A DNA stretch of 64,000 nucleotides. Origin: an uncultured Muribaculaceae bacterium (GTDB lineage: Bacteria; Bacillota_I; Bacilli_A; RF39; UBA660). This document shows positions 2,503-56,498 of this stretch, piece by piece; within the stretch, counting starts at the first letter, position 1; every line of letters begins with the position of its first letter. Under the pieces are notes generated by a model. The model was not told where the DNA came from. It searched no databases and saw only the letters and a list, made by a program, of their open reading frames with translations. The DNA lies in the NCBI GenBank assembly GCA_964370475.1, contig CAYJJI010000005.1, positions 1,840 to 65,839 of the forward strand, written 5' to 3'. The position numbers and the translations under genes are program-made.

Positions 2503-2760
2503 ATGGATATAAATAAAGAATTAGAATTAATAAAGGAAAGAAATGAGAAAGTTTCTAAGGATAAGGCTTGGGAGACTTCTTATACTCGTAAATTTTTAAT
2601 TATTATATTAACTTATATTTTTGCAGTTTTATATTTGAAGATTGCTGATAATACAAATCCTTATTTTGGAGCTGTAGTTCCTTGTGCAGGTTTTTTCTTA
2701 TCTACTTTGTCTTTAGGTTTTGTTAAGAAGTTATGGATAAAGAAAGTTTATAATGAATAA
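2503..2760 (+). CDS. small membrane protein, hypothetical
   Basis: The start is refined to the ATG at 2503 (MDINKELELIKERNEK...), which follows the transcript terminator of the ABC operon. The protein has two predicted TM helices. The stop overlaps the next gene. Confidence 0.5.
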   Translation: MDINKELELIKERNEKVSKDKAWETSYTRKFLIIILTYIFAVLYLKIADNTNPYFGAVVPCAGFFLSTLSLGFVKKLWIKKVYNE

Positions 2761-3514
2761 GGGCTATCCTGCATCTATTTTGAAGATAATTGACAATGCT
2801 CATGTAGAGGAAGTTGTTATTGGGTGTTCAGATTCTAAAGTTTATAAAATAGTAAGTGATAAAGTATACTATCTTAAAATATCTAGTAAAACTTTAATTA
2901 AGGAATATAATGCTTTGAAATGGTTAGATGGAAAATTAAATGTTCCTAGAGTTATAGTATATGAAAGTGTATTTGGAAAAGATTATTTATTAACTAGTGG
3001 TATGAATGGGAAGATGTTATCTTCTTCTGAGTATACTGATAATCCTGATTTAGTTATAAATTCATTAGTGAAAGCTTTTAAGGAAATAAAAGATGTTGAT
3101 ATATCTAATTGTCCTTTTAAAGTAGGGTTAAGTTATAAATTGGAATTAGTTACTAATAATGTTTTAAATGGTTTAATTAGTGATGAATATATACCTAGTG
3201 AAATACTTGATAAATATAATGGTGTTTCTGGTATATTGGATTATTTGTTAGCTAATAGATTTGATGAAGAATTGTGTTTTTCTCATGGAGATGTTAGTTT
3301 TCCTAATATATTTATTGATAAAGATGTTATTGGGTTTATTGACTTAGGTGATTGCGGGATTGCTGATAAGTGGTTTGATTTAGCTTTGTGTGAAAAATCA
3401 CTAATTAGGAACTTAGGGATAGAGTATGTAGATGTTTTTTATAAAAGATTGAATATAGTTCCTGATAGGTTTAAAATAGATTATTATTTACTTATGATGA
3501 ATTTGTATTTATAA
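2753..3514 (+). CDS. aminoglycoside/choline-kinase-type phosphotransferase (APH family)
   Basis: The motif HGDVSFPNIFID...IGFIDLGDCGIADKWFDLA matches the APH/protein-kinase-like Brenner motif HxDxxxxN together with the DxG catalytic loop. Confidence 0.7.
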   Translation: MNKGYPASILKIIDNAHVEEVVIGCSDSKVYKIVSDKVYYLKISSKTLIKEYNALKWLDGKLNVPRVIVYESVFGKDYLLTSGMNGKMLSSSEYTDNPDLVINSLVKAFKEIKDVDISNCPFKVGLSYKLELVTNNVLNGLISDEYIPSEILDKYNGVSGILDYLLANRFDEELCFSHGDVSFPNIFIDKDVIGFIDLGDCGIADKWFDLALCEKSLIRNLGIEYVDVFYKRLNIVPDRFKIDYYLLMMNLYL

Positions 3515-15836: not shown

Positions 15837-16814
15837 ATGAGAAGAAATAAAGACTATATTGACACTCAAAATTTTACTAAAGAAGAAATGCTTAATTTAG
15901 TTGGTTTAGGGTTGTTAATAAAAGATCACCTTAAAAGTGGTAAAAGTTTAGATGTATTACATCATAAAACTTTAGGAATGATATTCCAACAATCATCTAC
16001 GAGAACTAGAGTTTCATTTGAAACTGCTATGACTCAATTAGGAGGTCATGCTCAATATTTGGCTCCTGGTCAAATTCAATTAGGAACTCATGAATCTTTA
16101 AGTGATACTGCTAAAGTATTATCTAGATTAGTTGATATTCTAATGGCTAGAGTTGAAAGACATGTAAATGTTGATGAGTTAGGAAAATTCGCTACTGTTC
16201 CAGTAATTAATGGAATGAGTGATTATAATCATCCTACTCAAGAATTAGGGGATGTTACAACTATGTTTGAACATTTACCTGAAGGTAAGAGTTTTGAAGA
16301 TTTAAAAATAGTTTTTGTTGGTGATGCAACTCAAGTTTGTGCATCATTAATGATGATAACTACAAAATTAGGTGCTAATTTTGTTCAATATGGACCTAAA
16401 GGTTTCCAATTAAAGGAAAATCATTTGGCTATAGCTGAAGAAAATTGTAAGGTTTCTGGTGGAAGTTACTTAGTAACTGAAGATCCAGAAGAAGCACTTA
16501 AAGATGCTGACTTTATTTATACTGATGTTTGGTATGGTTTATATGAAGCTGAATTATCAGAAGAAGAAAGAATGAAGACATTCTATCCTAAATACCAAGT
16601 AAATATGGATATGATTAAGAAAGCATCACCAAACGTTAAATTTATGCATTGTTTACCTGCAACGCGTGGTGAAGAAGTTACTGATGAAGTTTTAGATTCT
16701 GAAATTTCAATTGTAATTGATCAAGCTGAAAATAGATTAACATCTATAAGAGCATTGTTAGTTTACTTTATGGATAAATATGACGAAACAATTAATGTAA
16801 TCAAAAATAGTTAA
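15837..16814 (+). CDS. ptcA: putrescine (or ornithine) carbamoyltransferase
   Basis: Carbamoyl-phosphate binding STRTR and HPTQ motifs with a C-terminal HCLP motif. Its position directly upstream of the agmatine deiminase genes favours the putrescine-specific enzyme. Confidence 0.8.
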
Positions 16815-16835
16815 TAAAAATTTGAAAGGTAGTTT

Positions 16836-18221
16836 ATGAAAAAGAAGAAGTTTAAATTGTTTGATGCAATACTTGCTGCTGTATGTATTACTTTAGTAGC
16901 TGAAGCTGTTGCACCAACTGCTGCTATTGGAAATTCTCAATATTTCTGGTGGATATTTTTAATCATCGCTTTTTGTTTACCTTATGGACTTATTACTGCT
17001 GAGCTTGGATCAACTTTTCCAAGCGAAGGTGGTATGTATACTTGGGTAAAAAAAGCATTTGGACCTAAATGGGCATCAAGAGTTGCATGGAATTATTGGA
17101 TTAATTTCCCATTATGGATTGCATCACTTGCTGTTGCAATGACTGATGTTATTGCTGGTATATTTGAAGTAGAGTTATCAATAGTTTGGTTATTGGTTTT
17201 ACAGCTTGGATATACTTGGTTAGTATCGTTTTTAGGTACGTTAAGAATTGGAGAAAGTAAGTTATTAGTTAACTTAGGGGCAATATTTAAAATTGCGTTT
17301 ATGGTAGGCTTAGGTGTACTTGGAGTATATGTATACTTTTCAACAGGTACTAGTGCTAATCCAATTAATAGTGTTACTGATTTATTACCAACAACTGATT
17401 TAATTAGTTTATCATTTATTTCAGTTATTATATTTAATTTCTTAGGATTGGAAGTTGTAGCAACTTTTGCTGAAGATATGGAAAATCCTAAAAAAGATAT
17501 ACCTAAAGCTGTAATTATAGGAGCATTACTAACAGCAGTGTTCTATTTATTACCTGCTACTGGTATTAATATTGCAATGGATTTATCTACTGCTGAATCT
17601 GCAGGGATTACTGATGCTTTTGCTTCGTTATTAGTTACTTTAGGATGTAATGCTGAAATAACTAGAATTATAGTAATTGCTGTTGGATTAATGTTTATTT
17701 ATACATTAGTTGCTAATATTATTTCTTGGTCATTTGGAGTTAACTCAGTTGCTAAGTTTAGTGCTGATGATAATGGACTTCCAAAATTATTTAGTAAAAC
17801 AAATAAAGCTGGAATACCATATATGGCTTCAATCATGAATGGTGTAGTTGCTTCTTTAATTATTATAGTAGGTGTAATACTTGGAGTAGTAAATGAAAAT
17901 GCTAGTAATTTATTCTGGACGTTTTTCTCACTTAGTTTAGTTACTTTATTAATTGGTTATTTACCTTTATTCTTATCATTTAAGAAATTAAGAAAGACTG
18001 ATAAAACTAAACGTTCTTATAAGATACCTGGTGGAAATTTCGTAGTTAATTTAGTTACTTATGTTCCATTTGTTATTTTATTTGTAAGTGTAATATTTAC
18101 TATATTTATAGATTTCACTTTTGATTCTATGATGGCTAATTTACCTTTAATTATTGGTGTAATTGTTTCATTGATTGTTCAAGAAATTATTGTAGCTGAT
18201 GCTAAAGAAGGGAAAAATTAA
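16836..18221 (+). CDS. aguD: agmatine:putrescine antiporter (APC superfamily), copy 1
   Basis: 461 aa, 12-13 TM helices, embedded in the agmatine deiminase cluster. Its stop overlaps the aguA start (ATGA). Confidence 0.7.
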   Translation: MKKKKFKLFDAILAAVCITLVAEAVAPTAAIGNSQYFWWIFLIIAFCLPYGLITAELGSTFPSEGGMYTWVKKAFGPKWASRVAWNYWINFPLWIASLAVAMTDVIAGIFEVELSIVWLLVLQLGYTWLVSFLGTLRIGESKLLVNLGAIFKIAFMVGLGVLGVYVYFSTGTSANPINSVTDLLPTTDLISLSFISVIIFNFLGLEVVATFAEDMENPKKDIPKAVIIGALLTAVFYLLPATGINIAMDLSTAESAGITDAFASLLVTLGCNAEITRIIVIAVGLMFIYTLVANIISWSFGVNSVAKFSADDNGLPKLFSKTNKAGIPYMASIMNGVVASLIIIVGVILGVVNENASNLFWTFFSLSLVTLLIGYLPLFLSFKKLRKTDKTKRSYKIPGGNFVVNLVTYVPFVILFVSVIFTIFIDFTFDSMMANLPLIIGVIVSLIVQEIIVADAKEGKN

Positions 18222-19315
18222 TGAAGAAATTAAATTCGACACCTAAAGCTGATGGCTTTAGGATGCCTGGAGAATTTGAGCCACATAAGGGAACTTATAT
18301 GATCTGGCCTGAAAGACCAGATAACTGGAGATATGGAGCTAAACCAGCTCAAGAAACTTTTGTTAAAGTTGCTAATGTTATTTCTAAGTATGAACCTATT
18401 ACTATGTTGGTTTCTGCTGCTCAATATTCTAATGCAAGACATTTACTTGATGAAAAAGTAAAAGTTGTAGAAATGAGTAATAATGATTCATGGTTAAGAG
18501 ACTGTGGAGCTACTTTTGTTAAAAATGACAAGGGTGATTTAAGAGCAGTTGATTGGCGTTTTAATGCTTGGGGTGGTCTTGTTGATGGGTTATATTTCCC
18601 ATGGGATCAAGATGATCTTATAGCTGGTAAGATGGCTGAGTTAGAACAAGTTGATAGATATTATCTTGAAGACTTTGTTTTAGAAGGTGGATCTATTCAT
18701 ACTGATGGTGAAGGTACTGCTTTAGTTACTGAAGAGTGTTTATTATCAGAAGGAAGAAATCCTCATTTATCTAAAGAAGAGATTGAAAAATATCTTTGTG
18801 ATTATATGAATGTTGAAAAGGTTTTATGGGTTAAAGAAGGTATTTACAATGATGAAACTAATGGTCATGTAGATAATATGGTAACTTATGTTAAACCTGG
18901 AGTTTTAGCTCTTGCTTGGACTGATGATGAAAAAGATCCTCAATTCAAGAGAAGTACTGAAGCTTTAGAATATTTAAATAGTCAAGTAGATGCTAAAGGA
19001 AGAAAACTTGAGGTGCATAAAATTTATACACCTAAACCAATATTAATTTCTAGAGAAGAAAGTCTAGGAGTTGATGCAGTTGATGGTACATTACCTCGTA
19101 ATGAGGGAGATCGTTTAGCTGCTTCTTATGTAAATTATTATGTAGGTAATGGTTTTGTATTACTTCCAATATTTGGTGATCCTAATGATCAATTGGCTAT
19201 TATGAGCTTATTAAAATTATATCCTGACAGAGTAGTTGAAACTATCTATGCAAGAGAAATTTTATTAGGTGGTGGTAATATTCATTGTATTACTCAACAG
19301 GTTCCTAAAAATTAA
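18221..19315 (+). CDS. aguA: agmatine deiminase
   Basis: 364 aa. The N-terminus is typical of agmatine deiminases (MPGEFEPHKGTYMIWPERPDNWR). A C-terminal Cys in HCITQQ corresponds to the catalytic cysteine position. Confidence 0.85.
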   Translation: MKKLNSTPKADGFRMPGEFEPHKGTYMIWPERPDNWRYGAKPAQETFVKVANVISKYEPITMLVSAAQYSNARHLLDEKVKVVEMSNNDSWLRDCGATFVKNDKGDLRAVDWRFNAWGGLVDGLYFPWDQDDLIAGKMAELEQVDRYYLEDFVLEGGSIHTDGEGTALVTEECLLSEGRNPHLSKEEIEKYLCDYMNVEKVLWVKEGIYNDETNGHVDNMVTYVKPGVLALAWTDDEKDPQFKRSTEALEYLNSQVDAKGRKLEVHKIYTPKPILISREESLGVDAVDGTLPRNEGDRLAASYVNYYVGNGFVLLPIFGDPNDQLAIMSLLKLYPDRVVETIYAREILLGGGNIHCITQQVPKN

Positions 19316-19370
19316 GAAAGTATGTTTACTTTCTTTTTTTGTGGTATAATCAATTTAATAGAGGTGTGTA

Positions 19371-20756
19371 ATGAAAAAGAAAAAGTTTAAGTTATTTGAT
19401 GCTATATTAGCAACTGTATGTATTATCTTAGTGGCTGAGGCAGTTGCTCCTACCGCATCTATTGGGAATTCACAATACTTTTGGTATTTATTTATCATTA
19501 TATTATTTTGTATTCCTTATGGACTTATTACCGCTGAGCTTGGATCAACTTTTCCTAGCGAAGGTGGTATGTATACTTGGGTTAAAAGGGCTTTTGGACC
19601 TAAATGGGCTTCTAGGGTAGCATGGAATTATTGGATTAATTTTCCTTTATGGATGGCTTCTTTAGCTGTTGCTGTAACTGATGTAATAATGGGTATATTT
19701 AATATAGATTTATCTATAATGTGGTTATTATTAATTCAGTTGGGTTATATATGGTTAGTTACTTTTTTTGGAAGTAATAGAATAGGTGAAAATAAGTTTT
19801 TAATTAATATGGGAACTTTCTTTAAAGTCTTATTTATGGTTAGTTTGGGAATTTTAGGAATTTATGTTTATATAGTTACTGGTGAAAGTGCTAATCCTAT
19901 AAATAGTGTTAATGATTTATTACCTACTATGGACTTAGTTAGTTTATCGTTTATTTCGGTTATTATATTTAATTTTTTAGGTTTAGAAGTAGTTACTACT
20001 TTTACTGATGATATGGAGAATCCTAAAAAGGAAATTCCTAAAGCAATTATAATAGCGATATTTTTAATAGCAATATTTTATTTGTTGCCTGCAACAGGTA
20101 TAAATATTGCAATGCCAGCATTAACTGCTGAAACAGCTGGTATTACTGATAGTTTTTCTATATTATTAACTACATTAGGTGTTAATAGTGATATTATTAG
20201 GGTAGTAGTTATTGGAGTAGGTTTAATGTTTATTTATACTCTTATTGCTAATATTGCTTCTTGGTCGTTTGGAGTTAATTCTGTTGCTAAGTTCAGTGCT
20301 GATGATAATGGTTTACCTAAAGCTTTTGGTATTACCAATAAAAAAGGTGTACCTTATATGTCAGCAATCATTAATGGTTTAGTGGCTTCTGGCGTTTTAA
20401 TAATCGGTTTAGTACTTAGTTTAGTTTCGGATAATGTAAGTAATTTATTTTGGACGTTCTTTTCTTTATCGGTAGTTACTCATCAAATAAGTCACGTTCC
20501 TATGTTTTTTGCTTTTTTAAAACTTAGAAAAACTGATAAAACTAAGAGAGCTTATAAAGCTCCTTGTAAGGGATTATTTATGTATTTGTTTGCATTAGTT
20601 CCTTTTGTTATTATTGTTCTTTGTTTAACATTTACTTTATTTATAGATTTTAGCTTAGAATCATTAATTAGTAATTTGCCATTAATATTAGGAGTTATTA
20701 TTTCTTTTATTGTACAAGAAATATTAATAAGAGATGTAAAAGAATCATGTAAATAG
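19371..20756 (+). CDS. aguD: agmatine:putrescine antiporter, paralogous copy 2
   Basis: 461 aa, about 75% identical at the protein level to copy 1 and with the same N-terminus (MKKKKFKLFDAILA). Confidence 0.7.
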   Translation: MKKKKFKLFDAILATVCIILVAEAVAPTASIGNSQYFWYLFIIILFCIPYGLITAELGSTFPSEGGMYTWVKRAFGPKWASRVAWNYWINFPLWMASLAVAVTDVIMGIFNIDLSIMWLLLIQLGYIWLVTFFGSNRIGENKFLINMGTFFKVLFMVSLGILGIYVYIVTGESANPINSVNDLLPTMDLVSLSFISVIIFNFLGLEVVTTFTDDMENPKKEIPKAIIIAIFLIAIFYLLPATGINIAMPALTAETAGITDSFSILLTTLGVNSDIIRVVVIGVGLMFIYTLIANIASWSFGVNSVAKFSADDNGLPKAFGITNKKGVPYMSAIINGLVASGVLIIGLVLSLVSDNVSNLFWTFFSLSVVTHQISHVPMFFAFLKLRKTDKTKRAYKAPCKGLFMYLFALVPFVIIVLCLTFTLFIDFSLESLISNLPLILGVIISFIVQEILIRDVKESCK

Positions 20757-20828
20757 ATAAAAAAAGTTAATTTGAAATGGAATTAACTTTTTTTATTTGG
20801 TATAATTTATATAGTAGGGAGAATAGAT

Positions 20829-21749
20829 ATGAGAATAGTAATAGCATTAGGTGGAAATGCTCTTGGAAATAATCCTAAAGAGCAACAAGAATTAATAGAT
20901 AAAGCAATGGCTAATGTAGTACCTTTAATTAAGGATGGTCATGAAGTAATTATAGGTCATGGAAATGGTCCTCAAGTAGGTGTTATTAATTTAGCTTTTG
21001 AAGATTCTTTTGAGAATAAGGATATTCCATATATGTCTTTTCCTGAGTGTAGTGCAATGAGTCAAGGATATATCGGATATCATATTCAAAAAGGTCTTAG
21101 AGCCTTATTGAAAAAGAGTAATCTTAATAAAAAGATAGCTACTATAGTAACTCAGGTAGTTGTTGATAAAAGCGATTTTGCTTTTGTTAATCTTAGTAAA
21201 CCAGTTGGTCCTTTTTATACTAAAGAAGTTGCTGATAAGTTAGCATTAGCTAGTGGTGAAACATATGTTGAAGATGCTGGCAGAGGGTATAGAAAAGTTG
21301 TTGCTAGTCCTGCACCGGTTTCAATAGTAGAAATAGAAACAATTAAGGATTTAATGAATACTGGTCATGTTGTTATTGCAGGTGGAGGAGGAGGAATTCC
21401 TGTTTATTTACAGGATGAAACTCAAGGAGCTAATGCGGTAATTGATAAGGATAAAGTAGCTTCATTAATGGCTAAAGAGTTAAATGCTGATATATTAGTA
21501 ATTTTAACTAATATTAAACAAGCTCAAATAAATTATGGTAAAGAAAATGCAAGTGGATTGGGTATTATTAGTGTAGATGAAGCAACTAAGTATATAGATG
21601 AAGGGCATTTTGCTAAAGGAAGTATGTTACCTAAGATGGAAGCTGCTTTAGATTTTGCTAAAACAAGTGGTAATAAAGCTATTATTACATCTCTAGATAA
21701 TTTAACTAATGCATTAAATGGTATAGATGCTACAATAATAGGAAAATAG
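20829..21749 (+). CDS. arcC: carbamate kinase
   Basis: The N-terminal MRIVIALGGNAL motif and Gly-rich IAGGGGGIPV loop are typical of carbamate kinase. This is the terminal gene of the agmatine deiminase cluster. Confidence 0.85.
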   Translation: MRIVIALGGNALGNNPKEQQELIDKAMANVVPLIKDGHEVIIGHGNGPQVGVINLAFEDSFENKDIPYMSFPECSAMSQGYIGYHIQKGLRALLKKSNLNKKIATIVTQVVVDKSDFAFVNLSKPVGPFYTKEVADKLALASGETYVEDAGRGYRKVVASPAPVSIVEIETIKDLMNTGHVVIAGGGGGIPVYLQDETQGANAVIDKDKVASLMAKELNADILVILTNIKQAQINYGKENASGLGIISVDEATKYIDEGHFAKGSMLPKMEAALDFAKTSGNKAIITSLDNLTNALNGIDATIIGK

Positions 21750-26124: not shown

Positions 26125-27056
26125 TGGATTTTAATGAGTTAAATGATATTGAAAAATCATTACTTAATGAAGTAAATGATTTGAATTCTATTACTGATGG
26201 AGCTTATAATATTAGAAGAAACGGAAAATTATTTGCTAAGTATTCTACTGATGAAGTAGAGATTAGAGGTAAGAGTGATTGTGAAGGTATTGATATTATT
26301 GTTGCTGATAATGTTAAAGTATCTGCTGTAAACATTCCTGTTATTTTAACTAATAGTGGTTTGAACGATATGGTTTATAATGATTTTTATATTGGTGATA
26401 ATAGTGAAGTTGTTATTAAAGCTGGGTGTGCTATTCATAATGATGAAGGACACCAAACTGAACATTCCGGTATTCACCGTTTTCATGTAGGAGTTAATAG
26501 TAAAGTCAAATATATAGAAAAGCATTTTGGTTGCGGAGAAGGTACTGGAGATAATATTTTAAATCCTGTTACTGAAGTTTATTTAAAAGAAAATAGTATT
26601 CTTGAAATGGAGACTACTCAAATAAGTGGTGTAGATCATACTATTAGAACTACTAGTGGTAAAATTGGTAAGGGTGCAAGTTTAACTATTAGAGAGAATA
26701 TTCTTACTCACGGAAATCAATTTGCTAAAACTATATTTGATGTTACTTTAGATGAAGAAAATAGTAGTTGTCATTTAATTTCTCGTGCTGTAGCTAAAGA
26801 CGATTCTAAGCAAGAATTTATATCAAGTTTGGTTGGAAATCATAAAAGTTATGCACATAGTGAATGTGATGCTATCTTAGAAGGTAATGGAAAAGTTAGT
26901 GCTGATCCTAAGATCGTTGCTAATCACAATGAAGCTACATTAATACATGAAGCTACTATAGGTAAAATTGCTGGAGAGCAATTAATTAAATTAATGAGTC
27001 TTGGTCTTAGCGAAGAAGATGCTGTTAATGTAATTATCAGTGGATTTTTAAAATAA
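26124..27056 (+). CDS. SufB/SufD-family Fe-S assembly protein (short, SufD-like)
   Basis: 310 aa predicted beta-helix. The C-terminal motif HEATIGKIAGEQLIKLMSLGLSEEDAVNVIISGF matches the conserved SufB/D C-terminus. It is coupled to sufC through an ATGA overlap. Confidence 0.65.
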   Translation: MDFNELNDIEKSLLNEVNDLNSITDGAYNIRRNGKLFAKYSTDEVEIRGKSDCEGIDIIVADNVKVSAVNIPVILTNSGLNDMVYNDFYIGDNSEVVIKAGCAIHNDEGHQTEHSGIHRFHVGVNSKVKYIEKHFGCGEGTGDNILNPVTEVYLKENSILEMETTQISGVDHTIRTTSGKIGKGASLTIRENILTHGNQFAKTIFDVTLDEENSSCHLISRAVAKDDSKQEFISSLVGNHKSYAHSECDAILEGNGKVSADPKIVANHNEATLIHEATIGKIAGEQLIKLMSLGLSEEDAVNVIISGFLK

Positions 27057-27092
27057 AAAATACAGTTAAATAGTTTAACTGTATTTTTTTTA
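27055..27092. terminator. bidirectional rho-independent terminator
   Basis: AAAAAATACAGTTAAATAGTTTAACTGTATTTTTTTT is a hairpin flanked by A and T runs, between convergent genes. Confidence 0.7.
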
Positions 27093-27947
27093 GTTGTCGA
27101 TTGTAGCTTTTGCTTTAACAACCCATTTACCTTCAGGAACTACTCCGAAGAAGTATCTTCCTTCTGAATTAGTTTTACATGTTTTTCTTAGTTTAAGAGA
27201 TTTGTTTTCTCCTTCACCAACTGATTCATATAAACCAACTGTTGCATTAGGAATTGGTGTTCTACTTGAATTATAAACAATACCATTGATTGTACCTTCT
27301 TTTGCTGCTGCAACTTTAATCATGTGAATGTTTTCTTCTGTATTAGCACTATCTACTACTTCAATTGTTATAGGAGTATATACTGTATAATCATCAGCTT
27401 GCGCTGTTAGAGTATATGTACCGGCGTCTATTTTATTAAATACGTATTCTCCATCTGTAGCTGAAATAGTTTCTGCTACTGTTACGTTTCCTGTATTTAC
27501 TAATTTTACTATTGCTTTTCCAAATGCGTTTCCGTGGTCATCGTAAACGTAACCAAAGACATTACCTTTTACATAAGTAGTATCTTGAGTAATAATGAAT
27601 TCATTTAATACTACATCTGTTCCTGTGTATGTAAGTGGTCTTTTTACTGACATTGAATATCCATCTTTTACGGCATAAACGATGTAGTCTCCTCTTGGAA
27701 CGTTTTGGAATGTATAATTACCATTTTCATTAGTCATTGTATGTTTGATTGGATTAAATTCAGTGTCGAATAATTTAACTGTAGCATTTGGAACATCTGT
27801 TCCAGAATTGTCTTCTACTTTACCACTTATGGTACTGGTGTTAATCTCGGGTGTTTCTTCAAGTTCTATCTCTTGATAGTGTTCTTGTAATTCCGCTAAA
27901 CTAATTTCTTCCGAAAAGTTTAACGTATATATATCTTTTTGATTCAA
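27090..27947 (-). CDS. protein with three carboxypeptidase-regulatory-like / Cna-B-type beta-sandwich domains and no signal peptide
   Basis: TTG start with a strong RBS (AAGGGGGGA, 7 nt spacing). Three repeats of the type GKVEDNSGTDVPNATVKLFD...NGNYTFQNVPRGDYIVYAVKDGY are present. It lies downstream of the 189-aa gene on the same strand. Confidence 0.55.
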   Translation of the reverse strand: MNQKDIYTLNFSEEISLAELQEHYQEIELEETPEINTSTISGKVEDNSGTDVPNATVKLFDTEFNPIKHTMTNENGNYTFQNVPRGDYIVYAVKDGYSMSVKRPLTYTGTDVVLNEFIITQDTTYVKGNVFGYVYDDHGNAFGKAIVKLVNTGNVTVAETISATDGEYVFNKIDAGTYTLTAQADDYTVYTPITIEVVDSANTEENIHMIKVAAAKEGTINGIVYNSSRTPIPNATVGLYESVGEGENKSLKLRKTCKTNSEGRYFFGVVPEGKWVVKAKATIDN

Positions 27948-27982
27948 AATTTGTCCCCCCTTATTTTGTTAATTTTTGAATC

Positions 27983-28552
27983 TTACATTATATTTAGTAA
28001 TGTTATTTCATATGCTGTATCATTTTCACCTACTGTGAAAATCATATTAAAAGTTTGAGTCCAGTTATATCCGTTTGGGATAACTAGTGTGTTTTCTTTG
28101 AATACTAATCCTGAAGGTAGTGCTGTTTTTGGAATGATAGGGCATGTAGGTTCAGTAATAAATTTTATTTCTGTACCTGTTGTTCCTGGATAGTATCTAA
28201 ATGTTTTTAAATTGTCATCTCTTTCAATTCTTCCGCCATTTTCACTTCCAACTACCATAGATAAAACAGAGTATCCTCCTTTAGTTTCTTCACATCCTGT
28301 ACATAGACAGTCTGAGAATATTTCTAATTTACTTGCTAGTATTACTTCTAACTTAGTAATAGCGTTGACCATTTTTTCTACTGATTTATTGGCTGCTAAA
28401 ATTTCTTGTGGGTCTTTAGAAACGCTAGTGAAATATTTTATTTTTTCAGCTTCTACATTTAAGATGTTAGCAAGTCCTGATTGTTCGTGTGCTACTGAAG
28501 AAATAATTTCTGAAATCGCTTCGCAACGATTTGTGCTTGTTGTTTCGTACAT
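27983..28552 (-). CDS. hypothetical Cys-containing protein with an N-terminal helical domain that is paralogous to the C-terminus of the divergent neighbour
   Basis: 189 aa with no signal peptide. The N-terminal ~75 aa (CEAISEIISSVAHEQSGLANILNVEAEKIKY...ITKLEVILASKLE) align with the C-terminal ~75 aa of the 28659..29699 product. CLCTGCEE follows, then a beta-rich C-terminal domain. Confidence 0.5.
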   Translation of the reverse strand: MYETTSTNRCEAISEIISSVAHEQSGLANILNVEAEKIKYFTSVSKDPQEILAANKSVEKMVNAITKLEVILASKLEIFSDCLCTGCEETKGGYSVLSMVVGSENGGRIERDDNLKTFRYYPGTTGTEIKFITEPTCPIIPKTALPSGLVFKENTLVIPNGYNWTQTFNMIFTVGENDTAYEITLLNIM

Positions 28553-28658
28553 ATTATCTCCTTTCTCTTTATTGTATGAGTGTTTTATTATTTTGTTTGT
28601 GTTTTTGTTTATAAACTTTATTAGATTATTGTCATATATTGATATAAAGAGGTTTAAT

Positions 28659-29699
28659 ATGAGTGAAAAAAATAATTGTTCTTATACTGATAGGAACTCT
28701 GAATTTAATGCAATGGCTAATAAGCTTTATTCTCCTAAAAAAGAGTTATTTTCTAATATGTGTTCTACTACTACTGATTGTGAATTAAGTGATATTTGTA
28801 GTAATCCTTTATTAGATACTTATTCTAGTTTTACTAGTTGTGGGAATGAAGGCTATTTTGTTACTAAGGATGGAGATAATCAAAATTTATATGTGCTTGA
28901 TTCTAATTTAAATGAAGTAGATCAAGTTAATATGGCACTACCAAATACTTCTTATAATAAAGATATTCAAGGAATTGCTTATGACCCTGATTTAGCTAAG
29001 ATGTATGTTGCGCATAATAATAGAATTTTTTCTGTCAATAATCAAGGTGATTTTATTAAAGATGAAGTTAATTTGAGTAGTACTAATACTACTAGAAGTA
29101 GTTGTTGTACTTCTATAACTTCAACTGCTACAAGTAGTCCAGCCAATATATCTGCTATTGGAATTGCGGATAATAATTTATTAACTACTTATGATAGAAA
29201 TGGTTCTAGTTTTGTTGCGAAAGTAACTAGTAGTGGTAATTTAGTTAATGAGACTCATTTGGATGATTCAATAGAACCTTCTTCGATATTAGAAACCTCT
29301 TCTGGTATACATGTTTTAGCTAAGAAAAATGGTCAATATAATTATATATATACTTTTGATAAGCAGAGTAGTAATTGTAAGAAGAGTAATTGTTGTAAAA
29401 TTATTATGGATGGAGAGTGTAGAGTGGATATAGAGTGCCCTGATTTACCTTGTGATTTAGAGGGAAGTTTATGTGAAGTGGTTAGAAGTATTGCTTTAAT
29501 TGAAAATGCTATTGCTAAACTTATTGACAGTGAAAGTTGTAAGATTAAAGCTGCTATTGATAATACTTCTTGTAATAAAGAATTAATTGATATAAATAAT
29601 TCTGTTTCTAAAACTATTATGAATATTACTTTATTAGAGCAGATATTAAAAGATAAGCTAGAAAAAGCAATTGAATTACATGAAAAAACAAGCTCTTAA
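28659..29699 (+). CDS. cysteine-rich hypothetical protein (346 aa) with a C-terminal helical domain shared with the 27983..28552 product
   Basis: The start is refined to the ATG at 28659 (RBS AAGAGG, 7 nt spacing). It has 20+ Cys residues in clusters (SCC, NCCK, ECRVDIECPDLPCDLEGSLC) and a beta-rich middle region. The C-terminus reads CEVVRSIALIENAIAKLIDSESCKIKAAI...ITLLEQILKDKLE. Confidence 0.55.
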   Translation: MSEKNNCSYTDRNSEFNAMANKLYSPKKELFSNMCSTTTDCELSDICSNPLLDTYSSFTSCGNEGYFVTKDGDNQNLYVLDSNLNEVDQVNMALPNTSYNKDIQGIAYDPDLAKMYVAHNNRIFSVNNQGDFIKDEVNLSSTNTTRSSCCTSITSTATSSPANISAIGIADNNLLTTYDRNGSSFVAKVTSSGNLVNETHLDDSIEPSSILETSSGIHVLAKKNGQYNYIYTFDKQSSNCKKSNCCKIIMDGECRVDIECPDLPCDLEGSLCEVVRSIALIENAIAKLIDSESCKIKAAIDNTSCNKELIDINNSVSKTIMNITLLEQILKDKLEKAIELHEKTSS

Positions 29700-30103
29700 C
29701 TGGCTTGTTTTTTTGTTTTAATCAATTTTTTTTGATTTTTTAGTTTATCTAAAAGTTCTTCGCTTGTATATTCTTCTTCTCCAGAAGATATAGCTAGAGA
29801 ATAATCATCATTTTTATTTAATAAATCTGATAATTGTGAATATTGGTTTGATGGTATTTCTTCGATGTCTGATGTGAACAATATTTTTTGTTTTAGAATT
29901 TCTAATTCTATATATATACTGTGGTGTTCATTAGTTAATTGATGTATTAAATCGATAAATGAATGATTTGTTAAGTACATATCAGTATGAAAATAATCAT
30001 TTAGATAATCAGCTAGTGCTTCGCCATGTGGCTCACCAAATATTACTATTTCACCATTTGGTTTTATTATTTTGTTTGTGTTATTAATATATATCTCTTC
30101 CTT
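29696..30103 (-). CDS. hypothetical protein whose reading frame extends ~40 codons upstream of the first ATG with no canonical start (possible ATT start or pseudogene)
   Basis: The open frame runs from the stop-flanked codon at 30103 down to 29696. The upstream part reads KEEIYINNTNKIIKPNGEIVIFGEPHGEALADYLNDYFHTD before the first Met. A strong RBS (AAAGGAAGAG) sits 8 nt before an in-frame ATT, and a hairpin terminator of the upstream gene precedes it. Confidence 0.4.
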   Translation of the reverse strand, partial: KEEIYINNTNKIIKPNGEIVIFGEPHGEALADYLNDYFHTDMYLTNHSFIDLIHQLTNEHHSIYIELEILKQKILFTSDIEEIPSNQYSQLSDLLNKNDDYSLAISSGEEEYTSEELLDKLKNQKKLIKTKKQAS

Positions 30104-30727: not shown

Positions 30728-32503
30728 ATGGGTAAAAGTATATATTTATTGTATATATTTGTTTTGTTGTTTTTAGTTTCTATTATCTCTATTGGATATG
30801 CTGCTTTAAATACTAATTTAAATATTAGTGGTGAGGCTGTTGTTAATACTACTGATGATATTTTTGTATCTAGTATTTCTTTAATTGAGAGTACTGATGT
30901 TACTGAAATTTATGACCCTAAGATTACTTATAATACTACTAATATTGGAATGAATTTATCAAGTGCTAGTTCTTTTTTTACTTATGAGGTTGTTATAATT
31001 AATAATAGTTCTAGCGATTATTATTTGTGGGAGATCAGAGAATTAATAAATTCTAGTGATATGTTATATTTTGTTACTGATTTATATAAGTATGATGAGT
31101 TTGAACCTGGTAGTGAAACTGTTTTTAGAATTACTTATATGGCGGATGGTGCTCCTGCTAATAATGAATTTATTTTGGAACTTGAATATGTTTTTAAGAA
31201 AGGTGAAAGATATAATGATGCTGTATTAGCAGGTTCAGATCCTGAATTGATTGATGGTTTAATACCTATTATTTATAATGAATCTAATAAAACTTGGGAG
31301 AAAGCTGATGTAATAAATAGTAATTGGTATGATTATACAAATGGTAAATGGGCTAACTCAGCTTCTGTTATTTCTTCTATGAAGGATTATTATGTTGATG
31401 CTTTGCCTGGTACTATTATTTCTATGGAACATATGACTTCTATGTTAGTATGGATTCCTAGGTTTTCATATACTATTAAGGATACTTTAGGTTATCAAGG
31501 ATTAAACGCTTCTTTAGTTTCTTTAAGTACTCCTGGTGGAATAGATATTAAATTTATGTCTAGTGAAGAAATTGATATGGGTAGTGCTAAATATAGTGGA
31601 GACACACCTAGTAATTATTTTACTTCATCTGCTTTTTGTTGGGGAGATACTTGTGATAATCCTGATACTAGATTTGATGAAGGTAATAAAGAAATATCTG
31701 GTTTTTGGATTGCAAAGTTTGAAGCTTCTTGGCATGATGGTTTGCTTTATTCTAAACCTAATGAAACTCCTGCTACTAATTTAACTATTTCAAGTACATT
31801 TAATTTAGTTCAGAATTTAATGAATGGAATAAATGGTTATAATAATTATGGTTATATAGGATATGTTAATGCTCATTTAATTAAAAATACTGAATGGGGT
31901 GCTATTGCATATTTAAGTCAATCTGAATATGGCAAATATGGTAATCCTGATTATGTGGGAATTAATAAGGAAATTTATCTTAATAATTGTAGTTTGTATA
32001 TAACTGGTATTGGTGGTGATTCTCCTGGTGATGGTAGAACTGAAGAAAGTTGTTATACTAATACATATGATACTTATAATGGAATGGGAGCTTCTACTAC
32101 AGGTAATATATATGGAGTTTATGATATGGTTGGTGGAACATTTGATAGAGTTATGGGTATTATATTAGATGCTAATGGAAATTTTGATTCTGATTTAGCG
32201 GGATTTAGTGAACTTCCTGAAGGAAGGTATATAAATATATATCCTTATGGTACTTATACACAGGGAGATATTTCTCCTATTAAAGGTGATGCTCTTACTG
32301 AAACTTTACTTTTTTATGACGATAGATACCTAGGAGATCCTAGATTTTCAACTACTAATTATTATGATTATCATTGGTTATATAGGGGAGGAAGTTTATT
32401 CTTTTCTAATACTGAGGCAAATGGGGTATTTTCTTATACTTTGTTTAATGGCCAAGCTGATTTACATCATTCTTCAAGATTTACTATTACAATGTATAGA
32501 TAA
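30728..32503 (+). CDS. membrane-anchored protein with a divergent FGE-sulfatase (SUMF1/DUF323)-like domain; paralogue 1 of 3
   Basis: N-terminal signal anchor. FGE-like signature blocks are present: hydrophobic-x-(I/V)-x-KFE (GFWIAKFEASWHDG), TEW-x-A-x-AY (IKNTEWGAIAYLSQSEYG), G-x-YDM-x-G (YGVYDMVGGTFDRVMG) and C-terminal LRGG (WLYRGGSLFF). The same blocks occur in the proteins at 46540 and 48053. Confidence 0.5.
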   Translation: MGKSIYLLYIFVLLFLVSIISIGYAALNTNLNISGEAVVNTTDDIFVSSISLIESTDVTEIYDPKITYNTTNIGMNLSSASSFFTYEVVIINNSSSDYYLWEIRELINSSDMLYFVTDLYKYDEFEPGSETVFRITYMADGAPANNEFILELEYVFKKGERYNDAVLAGSDPELIDGLIPIIYNESNKTWEKADVINSNWYDYTNGKWANSASVISSMKDYYVDALPGTIISMEHMTSMLVWIPRFSYTIKDTLGYQGLNASLVSLSTPGGIDIKFMSSEEIDMGSAKYSGDTPSNYFTSSAFCWGDTCDNPDTRFDEGNKEISGFWIAKFEASWHDGLLYSKPNETPATNLTISSTFNLVQNLMNGINGYNNYGYIGYVNAHLIKNTEWGAIAYLSQSEYGKYGNPDYVGINKEIYLNNCSLYITGIGGDSPGDGRTEESCYTNTYDTYNGMGASTTGNIYGVYDMVGGTFDRVMGIILDANGNFDSDLAGFSELPEGRYINIYPYGTYTQGDISPIKGDALTETLLFYDDRYLGDPRFSTTNYYDYHWLYRGGSLFFSNTEANGVFSYTLFNGQADLHHSSRFTITMYR

Positions 32504-34517: not shown

Positions 34518-36074
34518 ATGAATGAACAAAAGAATACTTATGAACAATTAAATAATAATGCTGCTAAACCTGATAATAATGGTTTAGCAGATAATGGATT
34601 ACAATCATTAACACCGGAACAGCCGGTGATGGCAGAGCAACCTCTTATGGTTGAACAACCAATTGCTGCTGAGCAACCAATTGTGGTCGAGCAGCCGGTT
34701 GTGTTTGAACAACCTGTTATGGTGGAACAACCAATTGTGACTGAACAATCTGCTGTAGTTGAAGAACCGGTTGTTAATATGAGTGATAATGGATTAGGAT
34801 CTTCTAGTTTTAATAATAGTCCTAAAAAGAAAAAAGTGTCAGTTACATTTATAATTATTATAATTCTTCTTATATTGAATGTTTGTGCTGCGGGATATTT
34901 ATTTTTATCTAATGATGATGAAAATATTAAAAATAACGATTCAGATACTACAATATCTGATGATGAATCTGATGATGAATCTGATGATAAAACTGATGAT
35001 GAAACTGATGATGAAACTGATGATACTAACGATTTTGTTAAAAATTCATTAGGTGATTTAGGTGGTTATTCTAGTATCTTTGAAGATATTGAAGATGATG
35101 TTATAAACTTAGTTATTGAGTCTAAAAAAGATATGAATGCTTATGAAGATGCTGAATTTAAGTGGGATATTTCTGCTAATGAAGGTAGTGAAGAAGTTAT
35201 TGCTTATTATGAAGGGGATACACTATATTTTCAAGCTGATGGAAAAATAATTGCTCGTGAATATATGGGTGGAAGTGCTGGAGATAATGCTTATTCGACT
35301 TTTGGAGATTTTTATTATTTAGAAACTTTAGATCTTAGCGGATTAGATACATCAAATACAGTTGGTATGTCTGCAATGTTTGCAGGATTATCTAGTCTTA
35401 TTGATATTGAATTTGGTGATTTTGATACTAGTAATGTTACTGACATGTCTAATATGTTTTATGAAACTAGTAGTTTATCTAATATTGACTTATCAGGATT
35501 TGATACTTCAAAAGTAACTGATATGAGTTATATGTTTGAAGATTTTGGTCGTTATAATTCAGTTGGTATATTTGGTGATGATGAGGATTTTGTATATGTT
35601 AATACTCATTTAGATTTGTCTAGTTTTGATACTAGTAATACTTCTGATATGAAGGGAATGTTTAAAAATTCAGCATTTACTACTATTGATTTAAGTAGTT
35701 TTGATACTAGTCTTATTTCTAGTATGATGAATATGTTTTATGGAGTTGATAATGCGGATCATATTGATTTAACTTCTTTTGATACTAGAAATGTTACTAG
35801 TATGTATAATATGTTTTCAGACAGTTCTTTAAAGACTGTTGATTTATCAAGTTTTGATACAACTAGTGTTAGTGATTTTGTGTGGATGTTTTCTTCTTGT
35901 GAGTTTGATTCACTTGATTTGAGTAACTTTACTTTTAATGATAATGCTTCTGTTTCTGGAATGTTTAGTGCTGCTAAAACTACTGTGTATGTAGGTTCTC
36001 AAGATCATTATAGTTTATTAACAGATGAAAGTACTACTAATAGCTTGAGTGATGTTACTATAAAAATTAAATAA
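34518..36074 (+). CDS. DUF285/PARCEL-repeat (Mycoplasma-type BspA-like) surface protein with an N-terminal (V/M)xEQP pentapeptide repeat region
   Basis: The cytoplasmic N-terminus carries about 10 copies of EQP(V/I)(M/V)x. It is followed by a TM helix, an Asp/Glu/Thr-rich linker (DDESDDESDDKTDDETDDETDD), and at least 8 repeats of the DUF285 type (LSGFDTSKVTDMSYMF). Confidence 0.65.
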   Translation: MNEQKNTYEQLNNNAAKPDNNGLADNGLQSLTPEQPVMAEQPLMVEQPIAAEQPIVVEQPVVFEQPVMVEQPIVTEQSAVVEEPVVNMSDNGLGSSSFNNSPKKKKVSVTFIIIIILLILNVCAAGYLFLSNDDENIKNNDSDTTISDDESDDESDDKTDDETDDETDDTNDFVKNSLGDLGGYSSIFEDIEDDVINLVIESKKDMNAYEDAEFKWDISANEGSEEVIAYYEGDTLYFQADGKIIAREYMGGSAGDNAYSTFGDFYYLETLDLSGLDTSNTVGMSAMFAGLSSLIDIEFGDFDTSNVTDMSNMFYETSSLSNIDLSGFDTSKVTDMSYMFEDFGRYNSVGIFGDDEDFVYVNTHLDLSSFDTSNTSDMKGMFKNSAFTTIDLSSFDTSLISSMMNMFYGVDNADHIDLTSFDTRNVTSMYNMFSDSSLKTVDLSSFDTTSVSDFVWMFSSCEFDSLDLSNFTFNDNASVSGMFSAAKTTVYVGSQDHYSLLTDESTTNSLSDVTIKIK

Positions 36075-54425: not shown

Positions 54426-54560
54426 TTTTATCACCAATGTTATTTTATCATGATAATAATTTTAGTCAATAGTGTATTTTTTTTATCATTATTATATAAA
54501 ATGTTACTCTTTTATTTTGTTATAACTTGTGATATATTGTTATTAGAATAGGTGATTAGT

Positions 54561-56498
54561 ATGGGTTATTTAAGAGAAAAATTTTGTAATAATAAAATGT
54601 TATTTATTACTTTAGGAGTGGTACTTTCTATCGCTGTTGCTGTTGGGATATCTTATGCAATATGGATTTTAACAAATACTCAAACGAGTAAAAATATAGT
54701 ACAAACAGGTTGTTTTGATATTACATTTGTTGAAGATACAGATGGTATAGAGTTAAGGAATGCGTATCCAATCACTGATGAGGCAGGTGTAAAATTATCA
54801 CCATATACTTTTACAATTACAAATACTTGTGATATTGCTGCTGGATATCAAGTTAATATTGAAATGTTAAATACAACAACACTTGATCATTCATTATTAA
54901 AAACTGTTCTTGATACTGGTACACCTACTATATTAAACACAAATAGCATAGTAGTGGAAACAATAGCTGATGCTACATCATATATGATTTATCAAGGTAT
55001 CTTAGAAAAAGATCAGTCAGTTACTCATAATTTAAGAATGTGGTTGGATGAATCGGCTACTTTAGAAAATTCGCAGAAAAAATTAGCTGAATCAAAAGTT
55101 GTTATAATTGCAACTCCTACAAAAGTTCCTGGTGCTGCGGATGAAATTCAACTTTGTAAAGATGAATATGCTATGCGAGGTTATACTGCAACATCTGGAT
55201 CGGAATTTAATTATATTTACGGTGATGATGGTGTAGTTATTCATAAATATACTGGTACTTCAACAGATTTAGTAATACCTTGTGAAATAGATAACAAACC
55301 TGTTGTTGAAGTAGGTGGAGATGCAATTGTATGTGGTGGTGAAGGTTGTTTAAATAAAGTGACGATTTCTCAATCGATTGATAGTGTTGTGATTCCTTCA
55401 ACGGTTAATGTTATTAAAGAATATGCTTTCTATGATACTTGGGCTTTAAATGAGTTGATTATATTAGATGGAGTAGAGATTATTGGAAATAATATATATA
55501 ATAACCCTCCAGCTAGTGTTGAAATTGGATTTGATAATATTTTACATATTTCAGAAAATATATATAATAGTCTTTTAGCAAATTATTCTAGTCAATTTTC
55601 TGATGTTTTAGTAAAAAATACTGATGCAAATGGATTTGAATATTTAAGTGTTAAAGATAATAATACTTTTAAGCAACTAATATCTTATAGTGGAAGTAGT
55701 GAGAATATAACTATACCTGATGGAGTGACATCTATATCTGGTAATGCTTTAAATCGTACATGGTCATCTGTATATCCGTCATTAAAAAATATATTTATAC
55801 CAGATAGTGTTGTGTTTATTGAAGATATTACTTCTGGGTATGAAGGCTCGCCGTTTGGAACTAATGAACTTACAGTAAATGCTGATGGTTTTGTTTATAC
55901 ATTAAACGCAGATGGAACTCCGCATACAATATATGATTATTATGGAACTGACAAAGATATTGTGATTCCAGAAGGTACTTTATATATTGATGAGTATGCA
56001 TTTCAATATGCTGATTTAACTAGTGTAGTAATACCTGCGAGTGTTAAGACAATTGGACATTATGCATTTGATTATAATCAACTTACTAATGTAGTTATTC
56101 CTAATGATATTGTTGAAGTATCAAGTAGAGCATTTACTAATAATCCTTTTCAAACAACTGCAGAAGGGTTTAATTGTACATATAATGCTGATGGATCTCC
56201 TCATACTATATATGGTTATAGTGGTTCTGAGACTGATTTAGAACTACCTGAGGGAACTAAATACTTGAATAAGTTTGGAGTTTATAATTTAAATTCATTA
56301 TATTTGCCGGATAGTTTTATTAGTTTAGATAATACTTTTTACGGATTGCCAAATGATGTATATGTAGCAGGAAGATCGTCTAGTGGCTTTTCGATAGTTC
56401 CTCCTCAAATAGCTGATAATTTTACATCTAATACTTTTACATATGAATTAGATAGTAACATTAGTAAAGAAGATTGGTTGGCAAGTTTACAACCATAA
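54561..56498 (+). CDS. surface protein with BspA-type leucine-rich repeats
   Basis: ATG at 54561 after a GGTGAT RBS. Signal anchor. An N-terminal beta-rich domain is followed by LRR_5-type repeats (VIPEGTLYIDEYAFQYADLTSVVIPASVKTIGHYAFDYNQLTNVVIP). Confidence 0.6.
   Translation: MGYLREKFCNNKMLFITLGVVLSIAVAVGISYAIWILTNTQTSKNIVQTGCFDITFVEDTDGIELRNAYPITDEAGVKLSPYTFTITNTCDIAAGYQVNIEMLNTTTLDHSLLKTVLDTGTPTILNTNSIVVETIADATSYMIYQGILEKDQSVTHNLRMWLDESATLENSQKKLAESKVVIIATPTKVPGAADEIQLCKDEYAMRGYTATSGSEFNYIYGDDGVVIHKYTGTSTDLVIPCEIDNKPVVEVGGDAIVCGGEGCLNKVTISQSIDSVVIPSTVNVIKEYAFYDTWALNELIILDGVEIIGNNIYNNPPASVEIGFDNILHISENIYNSLLANYSSQFSDVLVKNTDANGFEYLSVKDNNTFKQLISYSGSSENITIPDGVTSISGNALNRTWSSVYPSLKNIFIPDSVVFIEDITSGYEGSPFGTNELTVNADGFVYTLNADGTPHTIYDYYGTDKDIVIPEGTLYIDEYAFQYADLTSVVIPASVKTIGHYAFDYNQLTNVVIPNDIVEVSSRAFTNNPFQTTAEGFNCTYNADGSPHTIYGYSGSETDLELPEGTKYLNKFGVYNLNSLYLPDSFISLDNTFYGLPNDVYVAGRSSSGFSIVPPQIADNFTSNTFTYELDSNISKEDWLASLQP

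Follow-up and report, generated by a model that had tools for sequence, protein, structure and literature searches.

The closest described relative of the genes reported here is A-ENA, the subunit of fibres that surround the spores of Bacillus thuringiensis israelensis (Sleutel, Sogues & Remaut, Nat Commun 2026, PMC13111695; PDB 9ihh; Q8KNV8/Q8KNV7). The founding member is a helical hairpin of 101 amino acids (aa) that stacks into an 8-nm double-helical cross-alpha fibre, with up to 10 autocatalytic intermolecular isopeptide bonds per subunit; it assembles itself in E. coli, and its expression is limited to sporulating cells (PMC13111695). Fusions have also been described, in which an N-terminal A-ENA domain is followed by a collagen-like/C1q, SdrD_B/OmcB or 4Fe-4S passenger, and a survey found homologues throughout the Firmicutes clades Clostridia and Bacillales, as well as in Pasteuria (PMC13111695). 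Here we describe a cassette of three genes, A, B and C, at positions 27090 to 29699 of a 64,000-nucleotide stretch of contig CAYJJI010000005.1 (assembly GCA_964370475.1), referred to below as the window. Two of the encoded proteins, B and C, are A-ENA fusions, and the cassette recurs in related genomes together with its promoter-like motifs. We consider it probable, with some reserve, that these genes form a late-sporulation set of the A-ENA family which builds a decorated structure at the spore surface.

A first-pass annotation of this DNA, made from its letters alone, had placed three genes around a divergent region of 106 bp, and the coordinates of this arrangement are borne out:

27090..27947, minus strand: gene A, 285 aa, TTG start (open reading frame list)
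27983..28552, minus strand: gene B, 189-aa A-ENA fusion protein (open reading frame list and PF26595)
28553..28658: divergent spacer between B and C, 106 bp
28659..29699, plus strand: gene C, 346 aa, C-terminal A-ENA, 16 Cys (open reading frame list and PF26595)

We found that B and C share a helical module of about 70 aa, as that annotation had noticed: residues 12-77 of B and 270-335 of C align without a gap at 33% identity over 66 aa, and the pairwise E of 1e-7 places the likeness well beyond chance. The annotation took the module to be novel and assignable to no family. In phmmer searches of the PDB, however, the sole significant match of B was the A-ENA subunit 9ihh_A ('Ex vivo spore-silk A-ENA fibers', E 3e-6), which was also the best match of C (E 0.024), and a profile built from 14 modules of the B and C types matched 9ihh as its one hit (E 1.1e-9). 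PF26595 ('A_ENA') is likewise found in the precomputed annotation of database proteins 100% identical to B (P0001) and C (P0012), and in that of all homologues. Searches of Pfam-A and NCBIfam with B and C returned no match, a silence that misleads because the Pfam release used is older than PF26595. AlphaFold2 (AF2) single-chain models show an alpha-helical hairpin in both proteins; Foldseek searches of the PDB with these models did not retrieve 9ihh. By its sequence matches, the shared module is the A-ENA domain, the building block of sporesilk fibres, and with this match to a well-characterised domain the claim of novelty falls. The suggestion that it serves as an oligomerisation element fares better, as the module belongs to A-ENA, whose founding member polymerises by itself into fibres (PMC13111695).

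The isopeptide table published for A-ENA (PMC13111695) was mapped onto B and C through HMMER alignments. B keeps E23/Q24 (equivalent to E28/E29 of A-ENA), E34 (E39), E36 (E41), K37 (K42), N55 (N64), K67 (K76), E69 (E78), K75 (K84) and E77 (E86), which are invariant or nearly so among 11 orthologues, while C keeps E282, E292, K295, N313, E327, K333 and E335, invariant in 14 homologues. The residues of isopeptide bond (IPB) type 2 (IPB2, K42-N64/E39) are present as K37/N55/E34 in B and as K295/N313/E292 in C, and those of IPB3 (K84-E29/E28) as K75/Q24/E23 in B and as K333/E282 in C. Successive subunits of one protofilament are linked by these two bond types. Across the family at large, for which all counts here and below refer to the best 148 representatives, E39, K42 and N64 of IPB2 are kept in 148/148, 147/148 and 144/148, respectively, the IPB3 donor K84 in 143/148 and its acceptor E/Q29 in 148/148. 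K77, on which IPB4 depends, is Leu in 137/148 representatives, so that IPB4 looks Bacillus-specific, and the IPB5 positions are variable; both bond types appear, from these alignments, to be particular to a Bacillus subgroup. With IPB2 and IPB3 kept, B and C would thus retain the core of the family's cross-linking chemistry without its Bacillus-specific extras.

While the B. thuringiensis subunits are single-domain proteins of 101 aa, B and C each carry a folded passenger, and the two passengers sit at opposite ends of the hairpin:

28304..28540, minus strand: A-ENA hairpin of B, aa 5-83 (AF2 helices 5-44 and 48-83)
27992..28267, minus strand: C-terminal Ig-like beta-sandwich passenger of B, aa 96-187 (AF2 predicted local distance difference test, pLDDT, 86-94)
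28728..29363, plus strand: beta-propeller passenger of C, aa 24-235 (AF2 pLDDT 85-92, 16 strands)
29364..29468, plus strand: Cys-rich linker of C, aa 236-270, containing CKKSNCCKIIMDGECRVDIECPDLPCDLEG (predicted disordered)
29469..29690, plus strand: A-ENA hairpin of C, aa 271-344 (AF2 helices 271-302 and 306-344)

The order of domains in B (alignment-based AF2 model, mean pLDDT 80.8, about 80 in the hairpin) is that of the published fusions, with A-ENA N-terminal and the passenger C-terminal. This passenger is a single Ig-like domain, recognised by no library, which gave weak matches to Ig domains of the PDB in Foldseek (E of 2e-3 or above). C is reversed, with the passenger first and A-ENA last; the main text of the A-ENA paper holds no such polarity, describing N-terminal A-ENA fusions only, and leaves cysteines unmentioned (PMC13111695). 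The model of C (mean pLDDT 72.4, about 70 in the hairpin) predicts a propeller of four four-stranded blades, whose best Foldseek matches in the PDB were NHL-domain and other beta-propellers (E ~1e-6, ~190 aligned columns).

Conserved cysteines flank both hairpins. In B, a short low-confidence linker carries C82-L-C84-x-x-C87, in which the Cys are invariant. In C, the linker has a pLDDT below 50 at aa 237-269, and among 14 homologues its C246, C254 and C260 are invariant and C265 and C272 more than 90% conserved. The protein contains 16 cysteines in total (14-28 in its homologues), where the first-pass annotation had reported more than 20; its description of them as clustered holds only in part, with 5 in the N-terminal 61 aa, 2 at 149/150, 7 in the linker at 240-272 and 2 in the helical domain. 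The B. thuringiensis A-ENA, in contrast, has no Cys in its aligned residues 12-95. A parallel in this respect is S-/L-ENA (Ena1A/B/C, Ena3A; DUF3992) of the Bacillus cereus group, which forms covalent spore-surface fibres made in the mother cell, also without secretion signals, and joined by disulfides via N-terminal connectors; the Cys beside the polymerisation domain suggest that disulfides may be used here too. The folds are unrelated, S-/L-ENA being a beta jellyroll as opposed to the alpha hairpin of B and C, and A, B and C gave no Pfam match to DUF3992 at E <= 1.

Protein A opens with a conserved acidic peptide of about 38 aa, after which come three beta-sandwiches of the CarboxypepD_reg (transthyretin-like) type. 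PF13620 matches it in three stretches (E 3.8e-35), in agreement with the three carboxypeptidase-regulatory-like domains proposed in the first-pass annotation, and SpaA and SdrD_B matches overlap with these. A search with the domain hidden Markov model (HMM) found no A-ENA domain in A, whose family comprises 87 clusters of 281-305 aa that have the N-terminal motif in common. A beta-sandwich of the SdrD_B/CarboxypepD_reg type is shared with the published A-ENA systems; there SdrD_B is fused to A-ENA, whereas A is a separate polypeptide. The B. thuringiensis cluster further differs in that it contains an amidase, of which the cassette has none, carrying the CarboxypepD_reg protein instead, and in that it lies on a toxin plasmid, as opposed to a chromosomal cassette in a low-GC uncultured lineage.

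No hydrophobic segment is present at the N-terminus of A, B or C: the maximal Kyte-Doolittle mean over 11 residues in the first 60 aa is 0.35 for A, 1.15 for B and 0.43 for C, compared with 3.46 for the signal-anchored neighbour at 30728. The absence of secretion signals noted in the first-pass annotation thus stands, and an LPxTG motif is likewise missing from A, B and C. Sortase-assembled Gram-positive pili (CnaB/SpaA) resemble the system in that A matches SpaA and SdrD_B and in the predicted Lys-Asn isopeptide chemistry. They differ from it in signal peptide and LPxTG, which the cassette proteins lack, and in that the isopeptides expected here would be intermolecular, autocatalytic and located inside the A-ENA domain; no sortase was present among the annotated cassette neighbours.

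We next consider the elements that may control expression of the cassette:

28570..28596, minus strand: putative sigma-K-type promoter for the B-A operon, AC-N16-CATACAATA, which stops 17 nt short of the ATG and is followed by the ribosome-binding site AAAGGAG
28615..28641, plus strand: putative sigma-K-type promoter of C, AC-N16-CATATATTG, ending 17 nt before the ATG and followed by the ribosome-binding site AAAGAGG
27055..27089, minus strand: intrinsic terminator 3' of A, 16-bp stem and U-run (RNA folding)
29680..29720, plus strand: intrinsic terminator of C, hairpin across the stop codon, then U-run (RNA folding)

When the spacers of 12 loci were aligned, little was conserved save a ribosome-binding site and a promoter-like motif on either side. 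Of 14 loci, 13 have a perfect CATAnnnTA 17-23 nt upstream of the B start codon, preceded at 16 nt by the C of a conserved (T/A)CA. Towards C, 12 of the 14 have a perfect CATAnnnTA at 7-29 nt from the ATG, with AAC a further 16-17 nt upstream. The C-side -10 element of the window itself has one mismatch to CATAnnnTA, at the last base. Both motifs persist in L021 and L022, where protein identity is 35-45%. Among other upstream regions, taken as background, the -10 motif was present in 26/243 and the full motif in 4/243, and throughout the 64-kb window the single exact AC-N16/17-CATAnnnTA before a gene start is the B promoter. A scan for sigma-70-type promoters yielded nothing better than shuffled sequences. 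The consensus -35 is AC for sigma-K and ATA for sigma-E, with a CATA-type -10 common to both (PMC3789822), and the a-ena promoter of B. thuringiensis, CAC-N17-CATATAATA, is a putative SigK site whose reporter was sporulation-specific (PMC13111695). The spacer motifs match the sigma-K form, like the a-ena site, suggesting that both promoters may depend on sigma-K. With B. thuringiensis A-ENA, B and C share the hairpin domain, the IPB2 triad, the IPB3 donor and acceptor, a sigma-K-type promoter motif, the lack of a signal peptide and the clustering of genes.

At the 3' sides, the folded terminators are stable relative to shuffled sequences, with -14.1 kcal/mol and a z of -6.5 for that of A and -13.9 kcal/mol and a z of -4.2 for that of C (0/200 shuffles equal in either case). 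The presence of terminators after A and after C defines two transcription units, C and B-A. A generic terminator scan had overlooked both AT-rich hairpins, which folding then confirmed, and the terminator of A doubles, head-to-head, for a convergent SufB/D-like gene. Within the B-A unit, 35 nt separate the end of B from the start of A, which lies downstream. The start codon of A is a TTG (27945..27947, minus strand) behind a GGGGGG ribosome-binding site, and is conserved in 11/12 related loci; together, the conserved TTG and the unusually strong ribosome-binding site may set the B:A ratio in the operon.

The C<->B-A order recurs in about 15 distinct metagenome-assembled loci with a GC content of 21-29%. 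Identity to the window protein is 75-86% for A in the closest group (11 loci) and 46% in L018 and L022; it is 58-68% for B in the closest group and 43% in L022, and 38-64% for C in the closest group and 35% in L022. In the distant version of the cassette found in L022-L024, B still carries an MSMPII latch. The flanks vary by locus and include SNF2 helicases, restriction genes, the dcw cluster, mutS/mutL and proS, so that the same trio in differing surroundings indicates that the three genes travel, or are retained, as a unit. In L014 (3545..17117), for example, the cassette lies inside a rearranged dcw cluster, between mraZ-rsmH-ftsL-pbp and spoVE/ftsW-mraY-AAA-spoVD-like. An analogous divergent A-ENA cluster occurs in a metagenome-assembled genome of Cellulosilyticaceae (GC 39.5%; L012, 782..4089), which encodes a protein of 584 aa with A-ENA at its C-terminus, a stand-alone A-ENA of 106 aa that begins with a latch-like MSMPSITP, and a C-like protein of 337 aa with an extremely Cys-rich linker (CCVCPDTCTCCCSSPEHTPCCPC).

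Searching 1.84 billion representatives with the module profile, we obtained 2128 clusters formed at 50% identity with E <= 1e-3, of which 759 reached E <= 1e-10. An N-terminal passenger with a C-terminal A-ENA domain, as in C, was found in 72/148 representatives, 19 of them with a detectable C-type propeller, and the opposite polarity, as in B, in 18/148, 3 of these with a B-type Ig domain. The domain stands alone in 43/148, is internal in 4/148 and forms tandem arrays of 2-4 hairpins in 11/148. These arrays look, from their domain order, like genetically pre-stacked subunits; we found no mention of such an architecture in the A-ENA paper (PMC13111695). The tandem-hairpin proteins (P0113, P0153, P0156, P0247, P0114, P0121, P0122) are mostly Cys-free. 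Family-wide, a Cys marks the start of helix 1 in 102/148 representatives and a CxC/CxxC-type motif follows helix 2 in 80/148.

What is new here is the architecture and the conserved cassette, the module itself being a published, Pfam-listed domain, and the locus reveals no new principle. The C-terminal polarity and the hairpin-flanking Cys extend the published picture of A-ENA: the domain is often C-terminal, in 19 of 72 such cases behind a beta-propeller, two of the five isopeptide types emerge as the conserved core of the family, and most members outside Bacillus have Cys motifs on the flanks of the hairpin. The propeller-A-ENA/A-ENA-Ig/three-sandwich cassette with its two sigma-K-type promoter motifs is moreover fixed across many uncultured low-GC gut bacteria. 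It thereby provides targets for the display of passengers on auto-crosslinking fibres, which is relevant to the engineering of protein materials, for combined disulfide and isopeptide locking, and for the study of sporulation in uncultured lineages.

According to the model we favour, the divergent sigma-K-type promoters would turn on C and B-A late in the mother cell. Assembly would then proceed in the cytoplasm of the mother cell, on the spore or around it as it matures, and lysis of the mother cell would expose the proteins; as assembly is proposed to take place in that compartment, no secretion signal would be needed. The hairpins of B and C would stack cross-alpha, in a knobs-in-holes manner, as homopolymers or as B/C co-polymers. 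Stacking would set Lys37 (B) or Lys295 (C) beside Asn55 or Asn313 of the neighbour, with Glu34 or Glu292 as catalyst, for isopeptide type 2, and Lys75 (B) or Lys333 (C) beside Gln24 or Glu282 for isopeptide type 3. By bringing these partners together, the stack would lock itself through autocatalytic intermolecular isopeptide bonds, much as recombinant A-ENA self-assembles and cross-links without helpers (PMC13111695). In place of the latch and of bond types 1, 4 and 5, disulfides are probably contributed by the conserved Cys at the open end of the hairpin, which are C10 and those of CxCxxC in B and those of the Cys-rich linker in C. Outside the polymer, the Ig-like domain of B and the propeller of C would be displayed as structural or adhesive decoration, and A may belong to the structure as a third component that does not polymerise and probably docks via its conserved N-terminal peptide.

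The general part of this model agrees with the first-pass annotation, which had proposed structural proteins of the spore surface made in the mother cell; A-ENA proteins are endospore appendages (PMC13111695), the sigma-K-type motifs are conserved, and signal peptides are absent. The annotation's other option, an undescribed intracellular assembly, we judge unlikely. The most specific form of our model, a new kind of spore appendage in which every A-ENA hairpin bears a passenger and there is no plain major subunit, two isopeptide types act together with disulfides, A is recruited by its N-terminal peptide and the host is a cryptic endospore former, is offered more tentatively, as a possibility that falls short of probable.

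Several observations weigh against the model. The B-side -35 element is mostly TCA, not ACA. Distant homologues of A (32% identity) occur without A-ENA neighbours, and a six-frame search with the domain HMM found no stand-alone A-ENA in the cassette or in the 64-kb window. Compared with the B. thuringiensis protein, the N-terminal latch (MGMPxIxP) is absent both from B, which begins MYETTSTNRC, and from C, whose hairpin is internal, and both have Lys at the Q44 position (IPB1). K77 (IPB4) is replaced by Leu in B and C, Q82 (IPB5) by Ala in B and by Lys in C, and C has Ile281 in place of the Glu28-equivalent catalyst of IPB3. Judging by the residues present, B and C could form 2 of the 5 bond types, IPB2 and IPB3. 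As to the host, no sporulation gene was seen among the ~55 annotated open reading frames of the window, and probes for SspA, SpoIIID and Spo0A remained unmatched in 376 kb, a sample too small to inform. The SpoVD, SpoVE and CwlD scores of the relatives all lie just under the curated cut-offs, and the names attached to related records are Muribaculaceae and Mycoplasmatota, neither of which is known to sporulate. On the question of the latch, recombinant A-ENA1 fibres without IPB1 and IPB5 were unimpaired in stability (PMC13111695), so the latch is not essential to A-ENA membership; the relatives P0116-P0118 retain it as MSMPII/MGMPII.

In the main rival explanation, B and C have an accessory role as tip, anchor or decoration, and dock covalently by their A-ENA hairpins onto a fibre whose stand-alone major subunit is encoded elsewhere. 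Just such a role has been proposed for A-ENA fusions, with A-ENA joined to collagen/C1q in Bacillus as the proposed 'ruffle' of the fibre (PMC13111695). It would also suit the loss of the latch and of the inter-protofilament IPB5 from B and C, the frequency of stand-alone proteins in the family (the 43/148 above), and the Cellulosilyticaceae cluster, in which the 106-aa stand-alone A-ENA lies beside the C-like and the 584-aa proteins. The missing major subunit tells against it: just as in the window, the six-frame HMM search found no stand-alone A-ENA reading frame in the ~15 cassette loci, with flanks of up to 10 kb on each side (shorter on short contigs), and the cassette is kept as a self-contained unit across differing contexts. 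We therefore regard an accessory role as rather unlikely, while ranking the three remaining alternatives lower still.

Of these, the next would have the hairpins act as short-range covalent oligomerisers in a two-dimensional coat or exosporium lattice with Cys-rich contacts and without any filament. Late mother-cell proteins of this general kind, Cys-rich, devoid of signal peptides and self-assembling into spore-surface layers, are CotY/ExsY of Bacillus and CdeC/CdeM of C. difficile, and the numerous conserved Cys that flank the hairpins recall such lattice proteins. Bulky passengers on each subunit may also impede a compact double-helical fibre, and the inter-protofilament bond is lost. The cassette proteins nevertheless have no sequence likeness to CotY/ExsY or CdeC/CdeM and no Pfam or NCBIfam match to families of the CotY/ExsY/CdeC type, and their Cys lie in a short linker and around the A-ENA hairpin. 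Moreover, the residues that are kept, those of IPB2 and IPB3, are precisely those that stitch successive subunits of a protofilament, and a lattice of this sort thus seems distinctly unlikely to us.

The nature of the host bears on a further alternative, by which the cassette belongs to a non-sporulating organism and either builds a vegetative structure, intracellular or released by lysis, or is a remnant, with the CATA motif serving another sigma factor. The record titles point that way: related loci are named 'uncultured Muribaculaceae bacterium' (L002-L011, L013-L017), and one homologue of the A family is labelled Mycoplasmatota. So does the gene content of the window, in which the first-pass annotation's proposed search for sporulation genes came up empty among the annotated reading frames (transporters, the agmatine deiminase pathway, a two-component system and glycosyltransferases among them), even as its proposed search for sporulation promoters gave sigma-K-type motifs on both sides of the spacer. 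The Muribaculaceae titles, however, are probably a blanket mislabel, at odds with GC, strand bias and gene content. The window has a GC of ~27%, a strong positive GC skew and nearly all genes on the plus strand, and the relatives have a GC of 24-29%, near-total one-strand genes and Firmicute-like content (SpoVD/SpoVE/CwlD-like proteins, DUF285, YfhO, DHHW/MBOAT).

Among these relatives, one class-B penicillin-binding protein of L014 reaches 679 bits against the SpoVD equivalog (cutoff 688), compared with 332 for a paralogue in the same locus, and the FtsW/SpoVE protein of L014 scores 430 bits on SpoVE (cutoff 449). For the amidases of L016 and L017, CwlD was the single NCBIfam match, at 177 and 170 bits, respectively (cutoff 222). 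In L016, the cluster that contains the amidase is found downstream of rplM-rpsI, an arrangement that resembles rplM-rpsI-ybaJ-ybaK-cwlD of B. subtilis. These genes and the known spread of A-ENA homologues across Clostridia, Bacillales and Pasteuria (PMC13111695) speak for a sporulating host, and clear purifying selection on the proteins in ~15 species excludes a remnant. A non-sporulating host is in our judgement very improbable.

That the cassette is phage or defence-island cargo, as variable flanks with Abi_2, type I restriction HsdR, AAA_13 and SNF2 in several loci and weak PHROG matches for the beta-sandwich of A might suggest, has a negligible probability and was ruled out by the absence of any PADLOC match, of any PHROG match for B or C and of any relative among 2.9 million viral contigs, with other loci placing the cassette amid housekeeping genes (dcw cluster, mutS/mutL, proS).

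Adjacent to the cassette, a 94-aa open reading frame (ORF D, 29696..29980, minus strand) converges on C, overlaps its stop codon by 4 nt and contains the hairpin of the C terminator. As a candidate fourth member of the cassette it was rejected, having no homologue in any related locus; family searches with it gave no match, and it may not be a real gene. Small unannotated convergent reading frames of 137-141 aa occupy its position in L015, L016 and L017.

Elsewhere in the window, tRNA and Rfam scans gave no match. A complete agmatine deiminase pathway cluster is located at 15837..21749, comprising putrescine carbamoyltransferase (550 bits, cutoff 500), agmatine deiminase (593 bits), carbamate kinase and two amino-acid/polyamine antiporters. 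A gene resembling the APH(3')-family aminoglycoside phosphotransferases at 2753..3514 scores 194.7 bits, just below the curated cutoff of 205. Large predicted surface proteins are encoded at 30728..32503, 34518..36074 and 54552..56498, one being a 591-aa signal-anchor protein without a family match, one carrying DUF285 ('Mycoplasma') repeats and one being a BspA-type leucine-rich repeat protein; such surface proteins are typical of low-GC Bacilli or Mollicutes-related gut lineages.

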